Virus record (IMG/VR): IMGVR_UViG_2687453454_000004
Reading direction: 5' to 3' (one strand)
Source: a virus
Taxonomy: Duplodnaviria > Heunggongvirae > Uroviricota > Caudoviricetes
DNA length: 46,405 nt
Made by a program: the position numbers and the translations under genes. The notes under the pieces were generated by a model. It was not told the DNA's origin. It made no database searches and saw only the letters and a program-made list of their open reading frames with translations. Shown here piece by piece: positions 542-5,491 of the stretch; the stretch's first letter is position 1, and every line of letters starts with the position of its first letter.

Positions 542-1579
542 TTAACGCTTATCCGCCACCAGTTTGAGCGCGTGTTCCAGCACATTAATGTCTGCACCCG
601 CTTTATGGGCATTTTCACTTAAATAACGCCGCCACTGCCGCGCGCCAGGAATACCCTGGAACAAGCCCAACATATGCCGGGTAATATGGCCGAGATACGT
701 CCCCTGGCTGAGTTCACGCTCAATGTACGGATACATGGCGCGCACTACCGCCACCGGATCGGCATCGGTATCCGAGGAACCAAAGATCTCCCGGTCTACC
801 GCCGCCAGAATACCCGGATTCTGATACGCCTCGCGCCCGACCATCACGCCATCCATATGTTGCAGGTGTGCTTTGGCCTCTTCCAGCGACTTGATACCAC
901 CGTTAATCGACATTGTCAGATGCGGAAAGTCACGCTTCAGTTGATACACACGCGGATAATCGAGCGGCGGGATTTCACGGTTTTCTTTCGGGCTTAACCC
1001 CGAAAGCCAGGCTTTACGTGCGTGGATGATGAACATCTCACACTCGCCTTTGCCGGAAACGGTATTGATGAAATCGCAGAGAAATTCATAGCTGTCCTGG
1101 TCGTCGATGCCAATACGCGTTTTCACCGTCACCGGAATCGACACCACATCGCGCATCGCTTTCACGCAGTCGGCAACCAGCTGCGCATTACCCATCAGAC
1201 ACGCACCAAACATGCCGTTCTGCACCCGGTCAGACGGGCAGCCGACATTCAGGTTGATCTCATCATATCCGCGCGCTTCTGCCAGCTTTGCACACTGCGC
1301 CAGCGCCGCCGGATCGCTACCGCCCAGTTGCAACGCTACCGGATGTTCTTCTTCACTGTACGCCAGATAATCACCTTTACCGTGAATAATCGCCCCTGTG
1401 GTCACCATTTCGGTATACAGCAACGTATTGCGGGAAAGCAGACGCAAGAAATAGCGGCAATGTCTGTCCGTCCAGTCGAGCATAGGAGCAATACTAAACC
1501 GAGAACTCCAGTAAGCGCCAGTTTTTTCAGGCATCACGCTGGTTTGATTAGTTTTCTGTGTTTCAGGATTATCGTGCAT
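542..1579 (-). CDS. dusA: tRNA-dihydrouridine synthase A; 5' end supplied by the prophage
   Basis: 345-aa ORF with TIM-barrel Dus signature (NLNVGCP...GGI); start codon at 1577-1579; first ~35 codons are about 80% identical to a displaced copy at 45232-45335. Confidence 0.9.
1476..1579. other. attL region (dusA 5' end, phage-derived replacement segment containing the crossover)
   Basis: Homologous to 45232-45335; longest identical block cagttttttcaggcat (1519-1534 vs 45275-45290); exact crossover point not resolvable by eye. Confidence 0.5.
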
Positions 1580-1667: not shown

Positions 1668-2765
1668 ATGGCGTACTATAACATAGAGAAACGACTAAAA
1701 TCCGATGGCACACCACGCTATCGCTGTAATGTGATTATCAAAGAAAAAGGTGTTATCACTTACAGGGAAAGCAAAACATTCCCTAAACATGCTCATGCCA
1801 AAACATGGGGCGCACAGAAAGTGATGGAATTAGATCTATATGGCATTCCATCATCAAATGCTGTTGACGGACTTACAGTCCGTGACTTACTACACAAATA
1901 TTTAAATGACCCAAATGCCGGAGGTAAAGCAGGCCGTACTAAAAGATATGTGCTGGAACTGCTTATGGATAGTGACATCTCCGCGATCAAACTATCTGAA
2001 CTGACAGAAAATGACGTAATTGAACATTGCAGGCTAAGAAACAACGCTGGTGCAGGCCCAGCAACAGTCAGCCACGATGTTAGTTATCTTGGCAGTGTTC
2101 TGGATGCGGCAAAACCTGTATACGGAATCAATTACACATCAAACCCGGCGAAAAGCGCTCGTCCATATCTACTTAAACTCGGTTTGATTGGTAAATCAAA
2201 CCGTCGTAATCGTAGACCAGCATCTGATGAACTGAACATGCTCATTGAAGGCCTTCAACAACGATCTACTCATAAATGCTCAAAAATTCCGTTCGTTGAT
2301 ATCCTCAAATTTTCTGTGTGGTCCTGTATGCGAATCGGAGAAGTATGCCGGTTACGATGGGAAGATCTCGACCAGGAACAAAAATCTATACTAGTAAGAG
2401 ACAGGAAAGATCCACGTAAAAAGGAAGGCAACCATATGAAAGTTGCCTTGCTTGGGGAAGCCTGGGATATCGTCCAGCGACAACCCAAAAAATCAGAATT
2501 CATTTTTCCATATAACAGCACTTCTGTTACCGCAGGATTTCAGAGGGTAAGAAGCAAATTAGGTATTAAAGATCTGAGATACCATGATTTGCGTAGAGAA
2601 GGGGCAAGTCGCTTATTTGAGGCTGGTTTTAGTATTGAGGAAGTCGCTCAGGTTACAGGGCATCGTTCATTAAACGTGCTATGGCAGGTATATACCGAAC
2701 TGTATCCGAAATCTTTACATAATCGTTTTGAAGAACTCCAAAGGAGCAGAAATAAGACCTCTTGA
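1668..2765 (+). CDS. int: Tyrosine recombinase / phage integrase (dusA-targeting type)
   Basis: 365 aa; ATG with GAGG RBS; C-terminal catalytic motifs (MRIGEVCRLRWEDL, HDLRREGASRL, VTGHRSLNVLWQVYT); adjacent to and divergent from the dusA 5' end. Confidence 0.9.
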   Translation: MAYYNIEKRLKSDGTPRYRCNVIIKEKGVITYRESKTFPKHAHAKTWGAQKVMELDLYGIPSSNAVDGLTVRDLLHKYLNDPNAGGKAGRTKRYVLELLMDSDISAIKLSELTENDVIEHCRLRNNAGAGPATVSHDVSYLGSVLDAAKPVYGINYTSNPAKSARPYLLKLGLIGKSNRRNRRPASDELNMLIEGLQQRSTHKCSKIPFVDILKFSVWSCMRIGEVCRLRWEDLDQEQKSILVRDRKDPRKKEGNHMKVALLGEAWDIVQRQPKKSEFIFPYNSTSVTAGFQRVRSKLGIKDLRYHDLRREGASRLFEAGFSIEEVAQVTGHRSLNVLWQVYTELYPKSLHNRFEELQRSRNKTS

Positions 2766-2793
2766 CACTGTTTATCCATACAGTTAAAAATAA

Positions 2794-2813
2794 TACTGTA
2801 TACAAATACAGTG
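2794..2813 (+). promoter_or_regulatory. LexA (SOS) box upstream of the dinI-like gene
   Basis: tACTGTatacaaatACAGtg fits CTGT-N8-ACAG consensus exactly; 13 bp upstream of the ATG at 2826. Confidence 0.65.
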
Positions 2814-2825
2814 TAGGGGACTTTT

Positions 2826-3074
2826 ATGCGTATTGAAATCTGCATAGCCAAAGAAAAAATGACTAAAATGCCAACCGGTGCTGTGGATGCGTTAAAGGAA
2901 GAATTAACCCGACGCATCAGTAAACGTTATGACGATGTAGAAGTGATCGTAAAAGCCACCAGCAACGATGGCCTTTCTGTTACGCGCACCGCTGATAAAG
3001 ATTCAGCTAAAACTTTTGTTCAGGAGACTCTGAAAGATACCTGGGAGTCTGCTGACGAGTGGTTTGTTCATTAA
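2826..3074 (+). CDS. DinI-family DNA damage-inducible protein (prophage copy)
   Basis: 82 aa, MRIEICIAK...[11 protein letters not shown] resembles DinI/MsgA family; AGGGGA RBS; preceded by LexA box. Confidence 0.75.
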
Positions 3075-3105
3075 GTTCATCATCTCTGGACACCATTCAC
3101 TTGTA

Positions 3106-3135
3106 TTGACTTTAAGATCATTAAATTGTAATAAT
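3106..3135 (+). promoter_or_regulatory. Putative sigma70 promoter for the RT module
   Basis: TTGACT (3106-3111), 17-bp spacer, TG-extended TAATAA (3129-3134); predicted start about 3142, just before the structured leader. Confidence 0.35.
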
Positions 3136-3140
3136 TCAAA

Positions 3141-3275
3141 GGGATGGGGCAGGTTTTTCCTCTTGCGCATGCAAGGGCGGCTCTGATAATGAACAGTAAT
3201 ATTTTACTGTTGAGCTTATGCTCACTGATCCTGCCGGGCAGGATGTTCAACGGTTCCAATATATCCTGCCCCTTC
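3141..3275 (+). ncRNA. Candidate structured leader / ncRNA of the RT module
   Basis: 8-bp inverted repeats ggggcagg (3146-3153) and cctgcccc (3265-3272) flank about 110 nt containing four hairpins (3162-3175, 3193-3210, 3212-3223, perfect 17-bp palindrome 3228-3244); no ORF. Confidence 0.25.
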
Positions 3276-3296
3276 CGCTTTTAAAAAGGATCTTTT

Positions 3297-3848
3297 ATGC
3301 ATGACAATATTTGGTTTACATATAAAGCACGTATCCAAGCGCACCATCGACTAGAATGGCTTGAAAAACACTCTCAATTTATCCTCGTTTGGTATGCTAT
3401 ATTGAGTGCGGTACTTTCAATTGTAACGTTGCGATTTCCAAAGGTTCTAGGAGATAATACAGATGTCGTTGCGGCGATACTTTCAGTGGCTCTACTGGGT
3501 ATTTCTCTGATCGTATCTAACCTAGATTTTCGTGGTCGAGCAATAGCCATGAGAAGGAATTATATTGCACTACAGCGACTCTATTTTGACATTACCACCA
3601 GTCAACAGTTATCTCTTGAACAGAAAGAAAAATATTTTAATTTGCTCAATGAGGTTGAGAATCACCGTGACATAGATGATAAAATTTCAAGGGTAACTCA
3701 AGTTGGACTTAAGACGAGGATCCCCACACAAAAAGAAAAAATAATTGTTATTTTATGGATATTACTTCGAATATTTATTACTGCCGCACTTTATATACTC
3801 CCATTAATATATCTTTGGATTGACTATGACTGCAAGCAGAATTTTTAA
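3297..3848 (+). CDS. Multi-pass membrane protein, SLATT-like putative pore-forming effector
   Basis: 183 aa; AAGGA RBS; hydrophobic helices at about residues 27-46, 57-76 and 150-176 with a soluble middle segment; 3' end overlaps the RT start; AT-rich; SLATT assignment is an inference. Confidence 0.6.
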   Translation: MHDNIWFTYKARIQAHHRLEWLEKHSQFILVWYAILSAVLSIVTLRFPKVLGDNTDVVAAILSVALLGISLIVSNLDFRGRAIAMRRNYIALQRLYFDITTSQQLSLEQKEKYFNLLNEVENHRDIDDKISRVTQVGLKTRIPTQKEKIIVILWILLRIFITAALYILPLIYLWIDYDCKQNF

Positions 3849-5196
3849 AAAGTCATTCTCGAAAAAAAATCTTCTAAAAGTATACTCTGAAAAAATCAAA
3901 GAATCAGGAGCGATTGGCATAGATCGGATTCGCCCATCAAAACTTGATTTGACAATAAAAAATGAGATCACTTTCATTTTTGAAAAGGTTAATTCTGGCA
4001 ATTACAAATTTACAGCATATAAAGAAAAATTAATATCTAAAGGCGCTAACTCTACACCCAGACAGATTTCCATACCAACTGCTAGGGACAGAATTACTCT
4101 TAGAGCTCTCTGTGAATGCCTTACGGAAATATATCCTAAGTCCAGATTAAAACTACCACATACAGTAATTGACTCATTGAAAGAAGCATTAAACAACAGT
4201 CTATATGCTGAATATGCAAAAATAGATCTTAAAAGTTTCTATCCTTCAATTGAACATAAATTGATAATTAATGCAATAAAAAATAAAATTAGAAAAAAAG
4301 AAATTAGACAGTTAATAACATCATCATTAATCGTGCCTACTGTAAGTGGAACCACAGGAAGCAAAGGTATCCCTAATAATACCAGAGGAGTACCTCAGGG
4401 ATTAGCGATATCAAACATTTTAGCTGAAATATCACTATCTAATTTCGATGATGAAATCAATAAAATGCATGACATATGGTACATGCGATACGTTGATGAC
4501 ATTCTTATTTTAACACCAAAATATCAAGCAACAAAAATAGCTTCTCATATCATTGATAAGCTTCAATCATTAAATTTAAACCCACATCCATTAAATGAAG
4601 AGAACTCAAAATCCAAAGTAGGCAGCTTGGATGAAAGTTTCAACTTTTTGGGCTACCACATAAAAAATCGAGAATTATTGATAAAACATGAGAGCATTCT
4701 TAGATTTGAGTCATCCTTAGCAAAAATTTTTACTGCATATAGACACGCTCTACTACAAGCTAAAAATAAGCGCGATAAAGAACGAGCTGTTGCATATTGT
4801 CAGTGGAAACTAAATCTTAGAATTACGGGATGTGTGTTTGAAGGTAAACGATTGGGATGGGTATCGTACTTCTCACAAATAACGTCAACAGCTCAACTTC
4901 GAGCTGTTAATCATACGATCAATAATCTTATCCGCCGATTCGGCCTTTCATCAGAAATAAAACCAAAGTCTTTGATTAAAACTTTCTATGAACTCCGCAG
5001 GGGTAGAGCGGAGACTTTTAAATACATACCTAACTTTGACAATCTACATATATCTCAGAAACGAGAAATTGTTTCTATGTGGATAGGGAAAGAGAATGAA
5101 AAAAAACTTAGCAATAGTGAAATAGAGAGAAAATTTAAATTTAAAATTGCGAAATCAGTAAAAGAGCTTGAAGAGGACATTTCAGGGATATCATAG
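3820..5196 (+). CDS. Reverse transcriptase (unclassified: retron-like or UG/Abi-like)
   Basis: 458 aa (ORF track starts at TTG 3820; first ATG at 3826); RT motifs RQISIPTARDR, KIDLKSFYPSI, GVPQGLAISNILAEISL, YMRYVDDILIL (YVDD), FNFLGYHI; about 150-aa C-terminal extension. Confidence 0.9.
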   Translation: MTMTASRIFKKSFSKKNLLKVYSEKIKESGAIGIDRIRPSKLDLTIKNEITFIFEKVNSGNYKFTAYKEKLISKGANSTPRQISIPTARDRITLRALCECLTEIYPKSRLKLPHTVIDSLKEALNNSLYAEYAKIDLKSFYPSIEHKLIINAIKNKIRKKEIRQLITSSLIVPTVSGTTGSKGIPNNTRGVPQGLAISNILAEISLSNFDDEINKMHDIWYMRYVDDILILTPKYQATKIASHIIDKLQSLNLNPHPLNEENSKSKVGSLDESFNFLGYHIKNRELLIKHESILRFESSLAKIFTAYRHALLQAKNKRDKERAVAYCQWKLNLRITGCVFEGKRLGWVSYFSQITSTAQLRAVNHTINNLIRRFGLSSEIKPKSLIKTFYELRRGRAETFKYIPNFDNLHISQKREIVSMWIGKENEKKLSNSEIERKFKFKIAKSVKELEEDISGIS

Positions 5197-5308
5197 ATAT
5201 GTAATCCATTAAATCCTTTATATATAAAGCAATAAACACACTATTTAAATTCACAAATCAGCCGCAGTATCCTGCCATGACAAGTTGCTGCGGCATATCA
5301 CAAAACGA

Positions 5309-5491
5309 TTACTCCATAACAGGGACCGCAGGCCACTCAATATCAGGTGCAGTTGATGTATCAACACGGTTCAGCAACACCCGATACTTTTTCCAGGCTT
5401 CCAGCAATGAGGTTTCTTCCTCCGTTGCGATCTCCAGCTCAACAACAGTCTGAACGTACCGGGAACAGCCTCCTTCAGAGCTTGAAGGATA
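5309..5491 (-). pseudogene. 3' remnant of a tail fibre assembly gene (tfa)
   Basis: Start-less frame encodes ...[42 protein letters not shown], matching the conserved Tfa C-terminus from memory; in frame directly after the stf stop codon. Confidence 0.65.

Follow-up and report, generated by a model that had tools for sequence, protein, structure and literature searches.

In the Salmonella prophages Gifsy-1, -2 and -3, LexA controls operons composed of dinI, an antirepressor gene and irsA (Lemire et al. 2011, PMC3121763). In experiments, the operon headed by the dinI homologue proved LexA-site-dependent and responsive to mitomycin C, with the downstream genes co-transcribed (PMC3121763). Induction by nalidixic acid raises the Gifsy dinI homologues 4.5-23-fold, that of Gifsy-2 14-fold (PMC8072944). 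DRT10 is a defence system composed of a non-coding RNA (ncRNA), a SLATT protein and a reverse transcriptase (RT) (Tang et al. 2025, PMC12632851; Sanchez-Nieto et al. 2026, bioRxiv). For Eco3DRT10, synthesis of a tandem-repeat complementary DNA (cDNA), priming of the RT from Ser456 and phage defence have been shown; the cDNA is made constitutively and is a single-stranded DNA (ssDNA) that is toxic without ExoI/SbcB. The ncRNA of a UG17-A homologue is expressed from its native promoter, independently of the flanking genes. Here we describe a dinI-like gene with two LexA boxes directly upstream of a DRT10 cassette in a 46,405-nucleotide (nt) stretch of DNA (IMG/VR virus record IMGVR_UViG_2687453454_000004), the whole of which is called the window below. 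The window is an Escherichia coli lambdoid prophage integrated at the 5' end of dusA, and the cassette appears to have been inserted between dinI and the hairpin that follows dinI in related prophages.

The locus resembles the Gifsy operons in that a LexA-box promoter precedes a dinI homologue and downstream genes. However, the DinI-like protein of the window shares only 42% identity with Gifsy-2 DinI, the Gifsy promoters have one box where the window has two, and the Gifsy genes lie after the replication genes whereas the window gene lies at the prophage end. The Gifsy dinI homologue is followed by a small antirepressor gene and irsA, that of the window by a self-promoted DRT10. No Gifsy-like antirepressor open reading frame (ORF) was found after dinI, where positions 3075-3296 are taken up by a promoter and by a structured ncRNA that has pairs which covary; thus, the unit is not an antirepressor operon of the Gifsy type. 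In coliphage 186, a LexA-repressed phage promoter likewise drives a DinI-related sequence, tum (discussed in PMC3121763). However, Tum is a 146-aa fusion with antirepressor activity that triggers induction and is DinI-like in its C-terminal half, whereas the window protein is a stand-alone DinI domain. The chromosomal dinI of E. coli is a LexA-regulated SOS gene. Its product (1GHH) shares the family, the length and the C-terminal acidic helix with the window protein, whereas the window copy is prophage cargo with two operators and a differing central region.

Two LexA boxes at the promoter of a DinI-family gene

The integrase gene is followed by an 82-aa ORF, a 222-nt non-coding stretch, a SLATT_5 gene, an overlapping RT gene and convergent tail-fibre genes (Table 1). 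The 82-aa protein matches the Pfam DinI profile (PF06183) at positions 1-63 of 63 (E=1.1e-19, 70.9 bits, cut-off 24.2) and aligns over its full length with the E. coli DinI structure 1GHH, from which it is clearly diverged (E=3.7e-13, 52.5 bits). The C-terminal acidic helix TWESAD-WFV is present and aligns with ETWESADDWFV of 1GHH; in the DinI family, the TWESADxWF helix is the RecA contact. The single-domain layout of ~80 aa with this C-terminal helix is that of the DinI family, and phage mEp460 has an annotated DinI-like protein of the same sequence (100% identity). The DinI-family gene that a preliminary description of the window had placed beside int is therefore confirmed.

Two LexA boxes with perfect CTGT-N8-ACAG cores lie upstream of the gene, 28 bp apart. 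Box 2 (TACTGTATACAAATACAGTG), the consensus box of the preliminary description, agrees with the gamma-proteobacterial consensus TACTGTATATATATACAGTA at 17 of 20 positions; box 1 (CACTGTTTATCCATACAGTT), which comes in addition, agrees at 15 of 20. The distance from box 2 to the ATG at 2826 had been put at 13 bp and measures 12 nt from the 20-mer or 14 nt from the core. The promoter-like site of dinI has 10 of 12 hexamer matches and is also annotated as a promoter in phage mEp460. Its -35 hexamer TTGACA (2762-2767) contains the TGA stop codon of the integrase gene. Box 1 overlaps this promoter, and box 2 starts 3 nt past the -10 hexamer and covers the expected transcription start. Scoring with a LexA weight matrix gave 24.0 bits for box 2 and 20.7 bits for box 1, compared with 15.4-27.7 bits for the source sites and 12.4 bits for the best other site in the window (leaving out the one at 31957); the matrix, made from known E. 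coli LexA sites, is a rough one, and its scores are leads rather than values from a curated resource.

The block comprising the promoter, the boxes and the gene (2757-3074) is a discrete unit that 1852 of 5426 complete E. coli genomes contain. Where it stands alone, homology begins at ~2757-2762, at the -35 hexamer and the integrase stop codon; the cassette often occurs without the integrase gene, in prophages at prfC or yecD whose last gene is dinI. A nearly identical DinI is encoded by 80 IMG/VR contigs, 56 of which have upstream sequence, and both boxes are kept in all 56. The CTGT and ACAG half-sites are the same in all 20 different upstream variants, which vary in the -35 hexamer and in the sequence separating the boxes. 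Comparison of eight phage dinI homologues (41-100% identity; phages of E. coli, Klebsiella, Yersinia, Salmonella and Aeromonas) showed that seven of them, Gifsy-2 included, have a LexA box that scores 17.9 bits or more and begins 32-39 nt ahead of the ATG. The remaining homologue has a box in front of a small upstream ORF. One array study found that a dinI-like gene of CFT073 moved together with sulA, umuD and recN.

The high-scoring boxes over the promoter, the half-sites invariant among the variants and the box at the same position in distant homologues, including that of Gifsy, indicate that the dinI-like gene is very probably under SOS/LexA control. The SOS control proposed in the preliminary description thus gains strong support from the sequence. 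The palindromes could instead be chance matches or operators of another regulator, a possibility to which the C-rich spacer of box 1 (TTATCCAT) lends some weight. However, two perfect 16-mers precede this one gene, whereas shuffles predict 0.63 CTGT-N8-ACAG matches for the whole 46-kb window, which holds four. The scores inside the range of known sites, the constancy of the half-sites amid varying neighbouring bases and the positional match to distant homologues, among them the proven Gifsy case, also speak against this explanation, which is scarcely credible. The two-operator cassette, very widespread in E. coli, belongs to the known LexA-controlled prophage dinI genes.

A third strong LexA-like box (CACTGTTTATTTTTACAGTA) was found at 31957-31976, with 16 of 20 matches to the consensus and 21.3 bits. 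A DNA methyltransferase ORF (30932-31984, - strand) overlaps the box with its codons 3-9; the box could be a genuine SOS operator of the phage methylase or have arisen in the coding sequence by chance. The fourth CTGT-N8-ACAG match of the window (38825) scores poorly (6.8 bits) and lies near the C4 and isrK matches described below.

Assignment of the downstream module to DRT10

The module 3' of dinI, an RT module and presumed defence cassette in the preliminary description, is assigned to DRT10 (UG17-A: ncRNA, pore-like SLATT effector and protein-priming RT) from its PADLOC matches (Table 1), and it is a close variant of the published Eco3DRT10. The RT has a YVDD motif and a C-terminal Ser456, with the start site taken from RefSeq for the identical locus, and its gene overlaps the SLATT gene by 23 nt. 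Comparison of nine ncRNA homologues from E. coli, Xenorhabdus, Photorhabdus, Buttiauxella, Stutzerimonas and Pseudomonas gave a consensus structure of 32 pairs, 11 of which show compensatory changes. The shared features, a basal stem, four inner stem-loops and an unpaired template loop, are those of the published DRT10 ncRNA architecture. The window ncRNA fits the 137-nt description of Eco3DRT10, and the published U110 falls inside the template if the RNA starts at 3142. The promoter in front of the ncRNA is strong and promoter-like in the scan (10 of 12 matches plus TG). Its hexamers are conserved in Xenorhabdus and Photorhabdus, in which similarity runs from the -35 hexamer through the ncRNA and the sequence upstream is unrelated.

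The copy of the cassette at the prfC site (L002, 97% identical) has the template loop CAATGATTC, which is the exact complement of the 9-nt Eco3DRT10 cDNA repeat GAATCATTG. The window shares with Eco3DRT10 the ncRNA-SLATT-RT layout, the 456-aa RT with YVDD and Ser456 and the ncRNA length of ~137 nt. It differs in its template CAACGGTTC, which is two substitutions away from CAATGATTC, and in its dinI/LexA context, which is in neither DRT10 paper. Within the accessible part of the supplements of Tang et al., searches for the RefSeq protein accessions of the locus, for 'dinI' and for the ncRNA sequence gave no match, so that it is the 9-nt template, Ser456 and the length of the ncRNA that tie the cassette to Eco3DRT10. 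Eco3DRT10 appears to be a copy of the cassette, and by this analogy phage defence and the synthesis of a tandem-repeat cDNA would carry over to the window.

A retron, suggested by the combination of an RT, a two-transmembrane protein and a structured RNA, was rejected: UG17 is the best RT model, and no Rfam msr model matched. A search of positions 2600-5400 with Rfam 15 at a permissive threshold gave only chance-level matches and no model matching the DRT10 ncRNA.

The template loop (3248-3260) reads CAAC-GGUUC-CAAU in the window and CAAU-GAUUC-CAAU in the Eco3DRT10-type copy L002. The cDNA repeat predicted for the window template is GAACCGTTG, and the A and A' segments differ at the fourth base. 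An alternative 8-nt template register, GUUC-AACG-GUUC, is also present. The template form CAACGGUUC is common to Xenorhabdus, Photorhabdus caribbeanensis, Pseudomonas sp. GM84 and the yecD-site copy.

Position of the cassette relative to the dinI hairpin

Neither an automated scan nor a custom scan for hairpins followed by T-runs found a + strand terminator between the dinI stop codon and the RT module (3075-3296). The fold of 3075-3145 (-5.3 kcal/mol, z=+1.7) is less structured than shuffled sequence. These results agree with the earlier statement that no convincing terminator lies between the stop at 3074 and the RT module. A C-rich, G-poor Rho stretch resembling a rut site is not evident in 3075-3296 either, the C/G ratio being below 1 over most of it. 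Since nothing terminator-like separates the two, dinI transcripts probably run on into DRT10.

Phage mEp460 (JQ182728) shares with the window, at 97% DNA identity, the neighbouring integrase gene, the dinI promoter and both boxes, along with the identical DinI-like protein; its record annotates the promoter and not the LexA boxes. Homology between the window and cargo-free prophages such as mEp460 stops exactly at the dinI stop codon (3074). In the cargo-free prophages, a GC-rich hairpin lies at +69 to +101 after this stop. The mEp460 hairpin, a 12-pair stem followed by UUUUUCUUUUU that starts 69 nt after dinI (-19 kcal/mol, z=-3.8), is a textbook terminator; the automated scan missed it owing to a bulge, and folding and the custom scan confirmed it. 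In mEp460 this terminator is followed by the side tail-fibre gene, whereas in the window the 2.2-kb DRT10 cassette takes the place of the spacer before the hairpin. The hairpin is present in all 74 standard IMG/VR loci (L023-L102), with its stems kept by compensatory changes and with a T-run in 33 of them.

A hairpin homologous to the post-dinI hairpin, as identified by alignment with the post-dinI regions of L045, L086 and L069, is located 3' of the RT gene in the window (Table 1). Thus, DRT10 lies inside the dinI transcription unit. The cassette appears to have replaced ~57-67 nt between the dinI stop codon and the 3' hairpin, a junction that can be placed only approximately. Other cargo of this hotspot sits 3' of the hairpin, unlike the DRT10 cassette. 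No convincing direct repeats that would indicate transposition flank the cassette, the only candidate being a 6-nt GTTCAT repeat at the left junction. A dinI gene with LexA boxes is ordinary for such prophages. The presence of DRT10 inside its transcription unit is less ordinary, and placement of DRT10 inside an SOS transcription unit is not in the literature searched.

In the 41 of the 74 loci that have no T-run, prophage similarity breaks straight after the hairpin stem and variable cargo starts, so the hairpin is a recombination boundary as well as a possible terminator. Other cargo was also observed in the same direction directly 3' of a LexA-boxed dinI, namely ORF84 of phage BP-4795, a 'putative avirulence protein' (L105 248-1393), and leucine-rich-repeat proteins in the IMG/VR contigs L090 and L084. 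These are type III effector-like genes, and prophage effectors may be expressed from the dinI promoter in an SOS-linked manner.

Linkage of dinI and DRT10 in E. coli

The DRT10 cassette was found in 187 E. coli genomes, at least 180 of which keep the same dinI junction. Many of the 187 are ST131-type and APEC genomes, and a locus identical to that of the window is present in E. coli O177:H21 (NZ_CP016546.1, 1962129-1965849). The junction occurs at three integration sites (dusA, prfC and yecD) and beside different tail-fibre modules. The one exception that was inspected has an insertion sequence (IS) of the IS5-like ISKpn26 family at the junction (L005 2931-3911). In the IMG/VR contig L073, an IS2 lies exactly between dinI and the DRT10 promoter. 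Therefore, the dinI and DRT10 units are uncoupled in a few genomes.

In the yecD-site prophages L003, L005 and L110, dinI is a pseudogene with a +1 frameshift and without its last 9 nt (GTTCATTAA). The junction carries GTTCAT repeats, and slippage between them apparently removed GTTCATTAA. In front of DRT10, this lineage still has an intact promoter and two intact LexA boxes.

Possible read-through from dinI into DRT10

We propose that LexA dimers on the two operators, one between the -35 and -10 hexamers and the other over the start, would block the dinI promoter in undamaged cells, with DRT10 transcribed at all times from its own promoter. Upon DNA damage, RecA-stimulated cleavage of LexA would free the dinI promoter, and the 82-aa DinI homologue would be made. 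As is established for E. coli DinI, the protein would bind RecA filaments and modulate their activities. The SOS-induced dinI transcripts would continue into the ncRNA, SLATT and RT genes and add to their basal expression. Taken as a whole, this picture of a LexA-repressed prophage dinI unit holding a captured, self-promoted DRT10, with SOS read-through on top of basal expression, is likely. Some read-through RNA from dinI into DRT10 after induction is slightly more probable than none. A physiologically meaningful change in DRT10 activity by this route is doubtful, and it seems rather unlikely that the capture of an Eco3-type DRT10 in a LexA-controlled unit lets DNA damage or incipient induction lift the ncRNA, SLATT and RT above their constitutive baseline.

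The read-through into the RT module put forward in the preliminary description is structurally permitted, in that no terminator or Rho stretch intervenes and the hairpin is displaced. However, it is weakened by the promoter of DRT10 itself, by the constitutive homologues and by the lack of linkage in other species, and we regard SOS read-through as a possible auxiliary input. The following points weigh against it. DRT10 has its own TTGACT/TGnAATAAT promoter, conserved across genera, and does not need that of dinI; the ncRNA of the UG17-A homologue is made from its own promoter, and the Eco3DRT10 cDNA is constitutive. The closing stem of the ncRNA is followed by CUUCCGCUUUU and may stop part of the incoming transcription. 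Full induction would, by lambda biology, bring anti-terminated late transcription from the convergent tail genes, antisense through the cassette. In related SLATT-RT pairs of 14 other species, a DinI gene was found within 3-4 kb upstream in none, and 13 of the 14 have neither dinI nor a LexA box in this range. One and the same junction is found in all E. coli copies, so that a single ancestral insertion can account for the linkage in this species. A frameshifted dinI with intact boxes lies in front of the cassette in ~54 genomes, an upper estimate that counts records with at least 99% identity to a variant-spanning query and takes full-junction and dinI-only matches together. Neither DRT10 paper mentions dinI, LexA, SOS or RecA as regulation (Tang et al. 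2025; Sanchez-Nieto et al. 2026).

The main rival of the read-through reading is that the adjacency is a neutral by-product of the hotspot. The dinI gene would then be SOS-controlled, with its transcripts ended or processed by Rho, RNases or the closing stem of the ncRNA before they matter; DRT10 would be set by its own promoter only, and one insertion at the hotspot would have been spread by recombination among lambdoid prophages. In addition to the conserved DRT10 promoter, the constitutive and independent expression of homologues, the single identical E. coli junction and the other species without such an association, this explanation fits the tolerated IS elements between dinI and DRT10 and the use of the post-dinI site as a general cargo hotspot for leucine-rich-repeat effectors, an acyltransferase and other genes. 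However, no terminator or rut-like C-rich stretch lies between dinI and the ncRNA, the cassette sits upstream of the hairpin of dinI itself where other cargo follows the hairpin, and the Gifsy experiments demonstrate co-transcription from a LexA-controlled dinI promoter into downstream genes (PMC3121763). Neutral juxtaposition is possible, though on balance somewhat unlikely.

Induction could also lower DRT10 expression. Firing of the dinI promoter upon SOS induction would occlude the DRT10 promoter and late transcription would run antisense through the RT and SLATT genes, leaving less DRT10 and sparing the lytic cycle of the phage. The tandem promoters are ~345 bp apart with nothing between to separate them, the tail-fibre genes converge on the cassette, and neither strand of the hairpin 3' of the RT gene carries a T-run. 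The basis of such interference is late transcription in lambda and studies of promoter occlusion. However, its application to this locus is entirely inferential, and occlusion normally needs a much stronger upstream promoter, whereas the -10 hexamer of dinI is weak (AAAAAT). Interference is improbable.

A coupling at the protein level, in which the ssDNA of DRT10 could load RecA and DinI would be kept to damp the RecA co-protease and prevent self-induction of the prophage, was also weighed. The DRT10 cDNA is a constitutive ssDNA, toxic without ExoI/SbcB; DinI binds RecA filaments, as is also discussed for Gifsy (PMC3121763); and the linkage is tight (180/187). However, the frameshifted dinI genes (~54 genomes, the upper estimate given above) argue against a role of the DinI protein for DRT10, being neutral for read-through. 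The same dinI cassette occurs in ~1650 genomes without DRT10, the DRT10 relatives in other species have no dinI, and dinI would be LexA-repressed exactly while the basal cDNA is made. Protein-level coupling is very improbable.

A general SOS linkage of DRT10 was rejected, as 13 of the 14 other species are without it. In Buttiauxella sp. B2 (L009 1396-3460), a DRT10 relative lies directly 3' of umuD-umuC in the same orientation. The umuDC genes have a consensus LexA box (CTGTATATAAATACAG) at 1396, and the umuC stop codon is separated from the ncRNA by 185 nt in which no terminator-like site is present. As a single case in 14 species, this arrangement is suggestive and not significant.

Other features of the window

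The coordinates of the features are collected in Table 1. Elsewhere in the prophage, Rfam matches above the gathering score were obtained on the - strand for the C4 antisense RNA (38395-38482, 82.8 bits) and for the Hfq-binding small RNA isrK (38507-38583, 59 bits). C4 and isrK RNAs are known from the ant immunity of P1/P7 and from the IsrK/AntQ control of Gifsy. The two matches suggest an RNA-controlled antirepressor or anti-Q module in the prophage. A partial match to Rfam IS009 at 5352-5400 (- strand; 42 bits against a gathering score of 117) is clipped where the searched range ends. The site belongs to the conserved 3'-terminal region of the tail-fibre assembly gene, and in the whole-window search the match is below threshold.

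Table 1. Features of the window around the dinI-like gene and the DRT10 cassette
Feature	Position	Strand	Basis or remark
dusA	542-1579	-	ORF, context neighbour of integrase
Tyrosine integrase, adjoins dusA	1668-2765	+	Pfam Phage_integrase, E=8e-21
dinI promoter-like site	2762-2791	+	TTGACA (2762-2767), 18-nt spacer, AAAAAT (2786-2791)
LexA box 1	2766-2785 (core 2768-2783)		Between -35 and -10 hexamers
LexA box 2	2794-2813 (core 2796-2811)		Over expected transcription start
Ribosome-binding site AGGGGA	2815-2820	+	5 nt before ATG, read from sequence
dinI-like gene, 82 aa	2826-3074	+	Pfam DinI; PDB 1GHH; mEp460 identity
Spacer, dinI stop to DRT10 promoter	3075-3105	+	No terminator, no stable structure
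DRT10 own promoter	3106-3135	+	TTGACT, 18-nt spacer, TG-n-AATAAT (extended -10; hexamer 3130-3135)
DRT10 ncRNA, ends approximate	3142-3278	+	Basal stem 3146-3153/3265-3272, four inner stem-loops, template CAACGGUUC 3248-3256
SLATT_5 two-transmembrane effector	3297-3848	+	Pfam SLATT_5, E=1.3e-28; PADLOC RTasSLATT, E=1.5e-56
UG17 (DRT10) RT, 456 aa	3826-5196	+	PADLOC RT_UG17, E=1.1e-158, full length; Pfam RVT_1
GC-rich hairpin homologous to post-dinI hairpin	5261-5294	+	65 nt after RT stop, no T-run (either strand)

Implications

The dinI cassette itself is routine, a widespread two-operator example from E. coli beside the LexA-controlled prophage dinI genes of Salmonella. DRT10 is a newly characterised, telomerase-like system whose regulation has been described only as constitutive and whose toxicity is balanced by a host ssDNA exonuclease. 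If read-through occurs as proposed, DRT10 would be the first defence RT with its dosage wired to the SOS response, and a system linked to ssDNA through ExoI/SbcB and triggers resembling phage single-stranded DNA-binding protein would be tied to the ssDNA alarm of the cell. The umuDC-DRT10 arrangement of Buttiauxella would then be a second, independent instance. If read-through alters the dosage, DRT10 clones with "native flanks" would carry a hidden LexA-dependent input, and SOS-inducing antibiotics such as quinolones and mitomycin C would change phage resistance and possibly the fitness of the lysogen.

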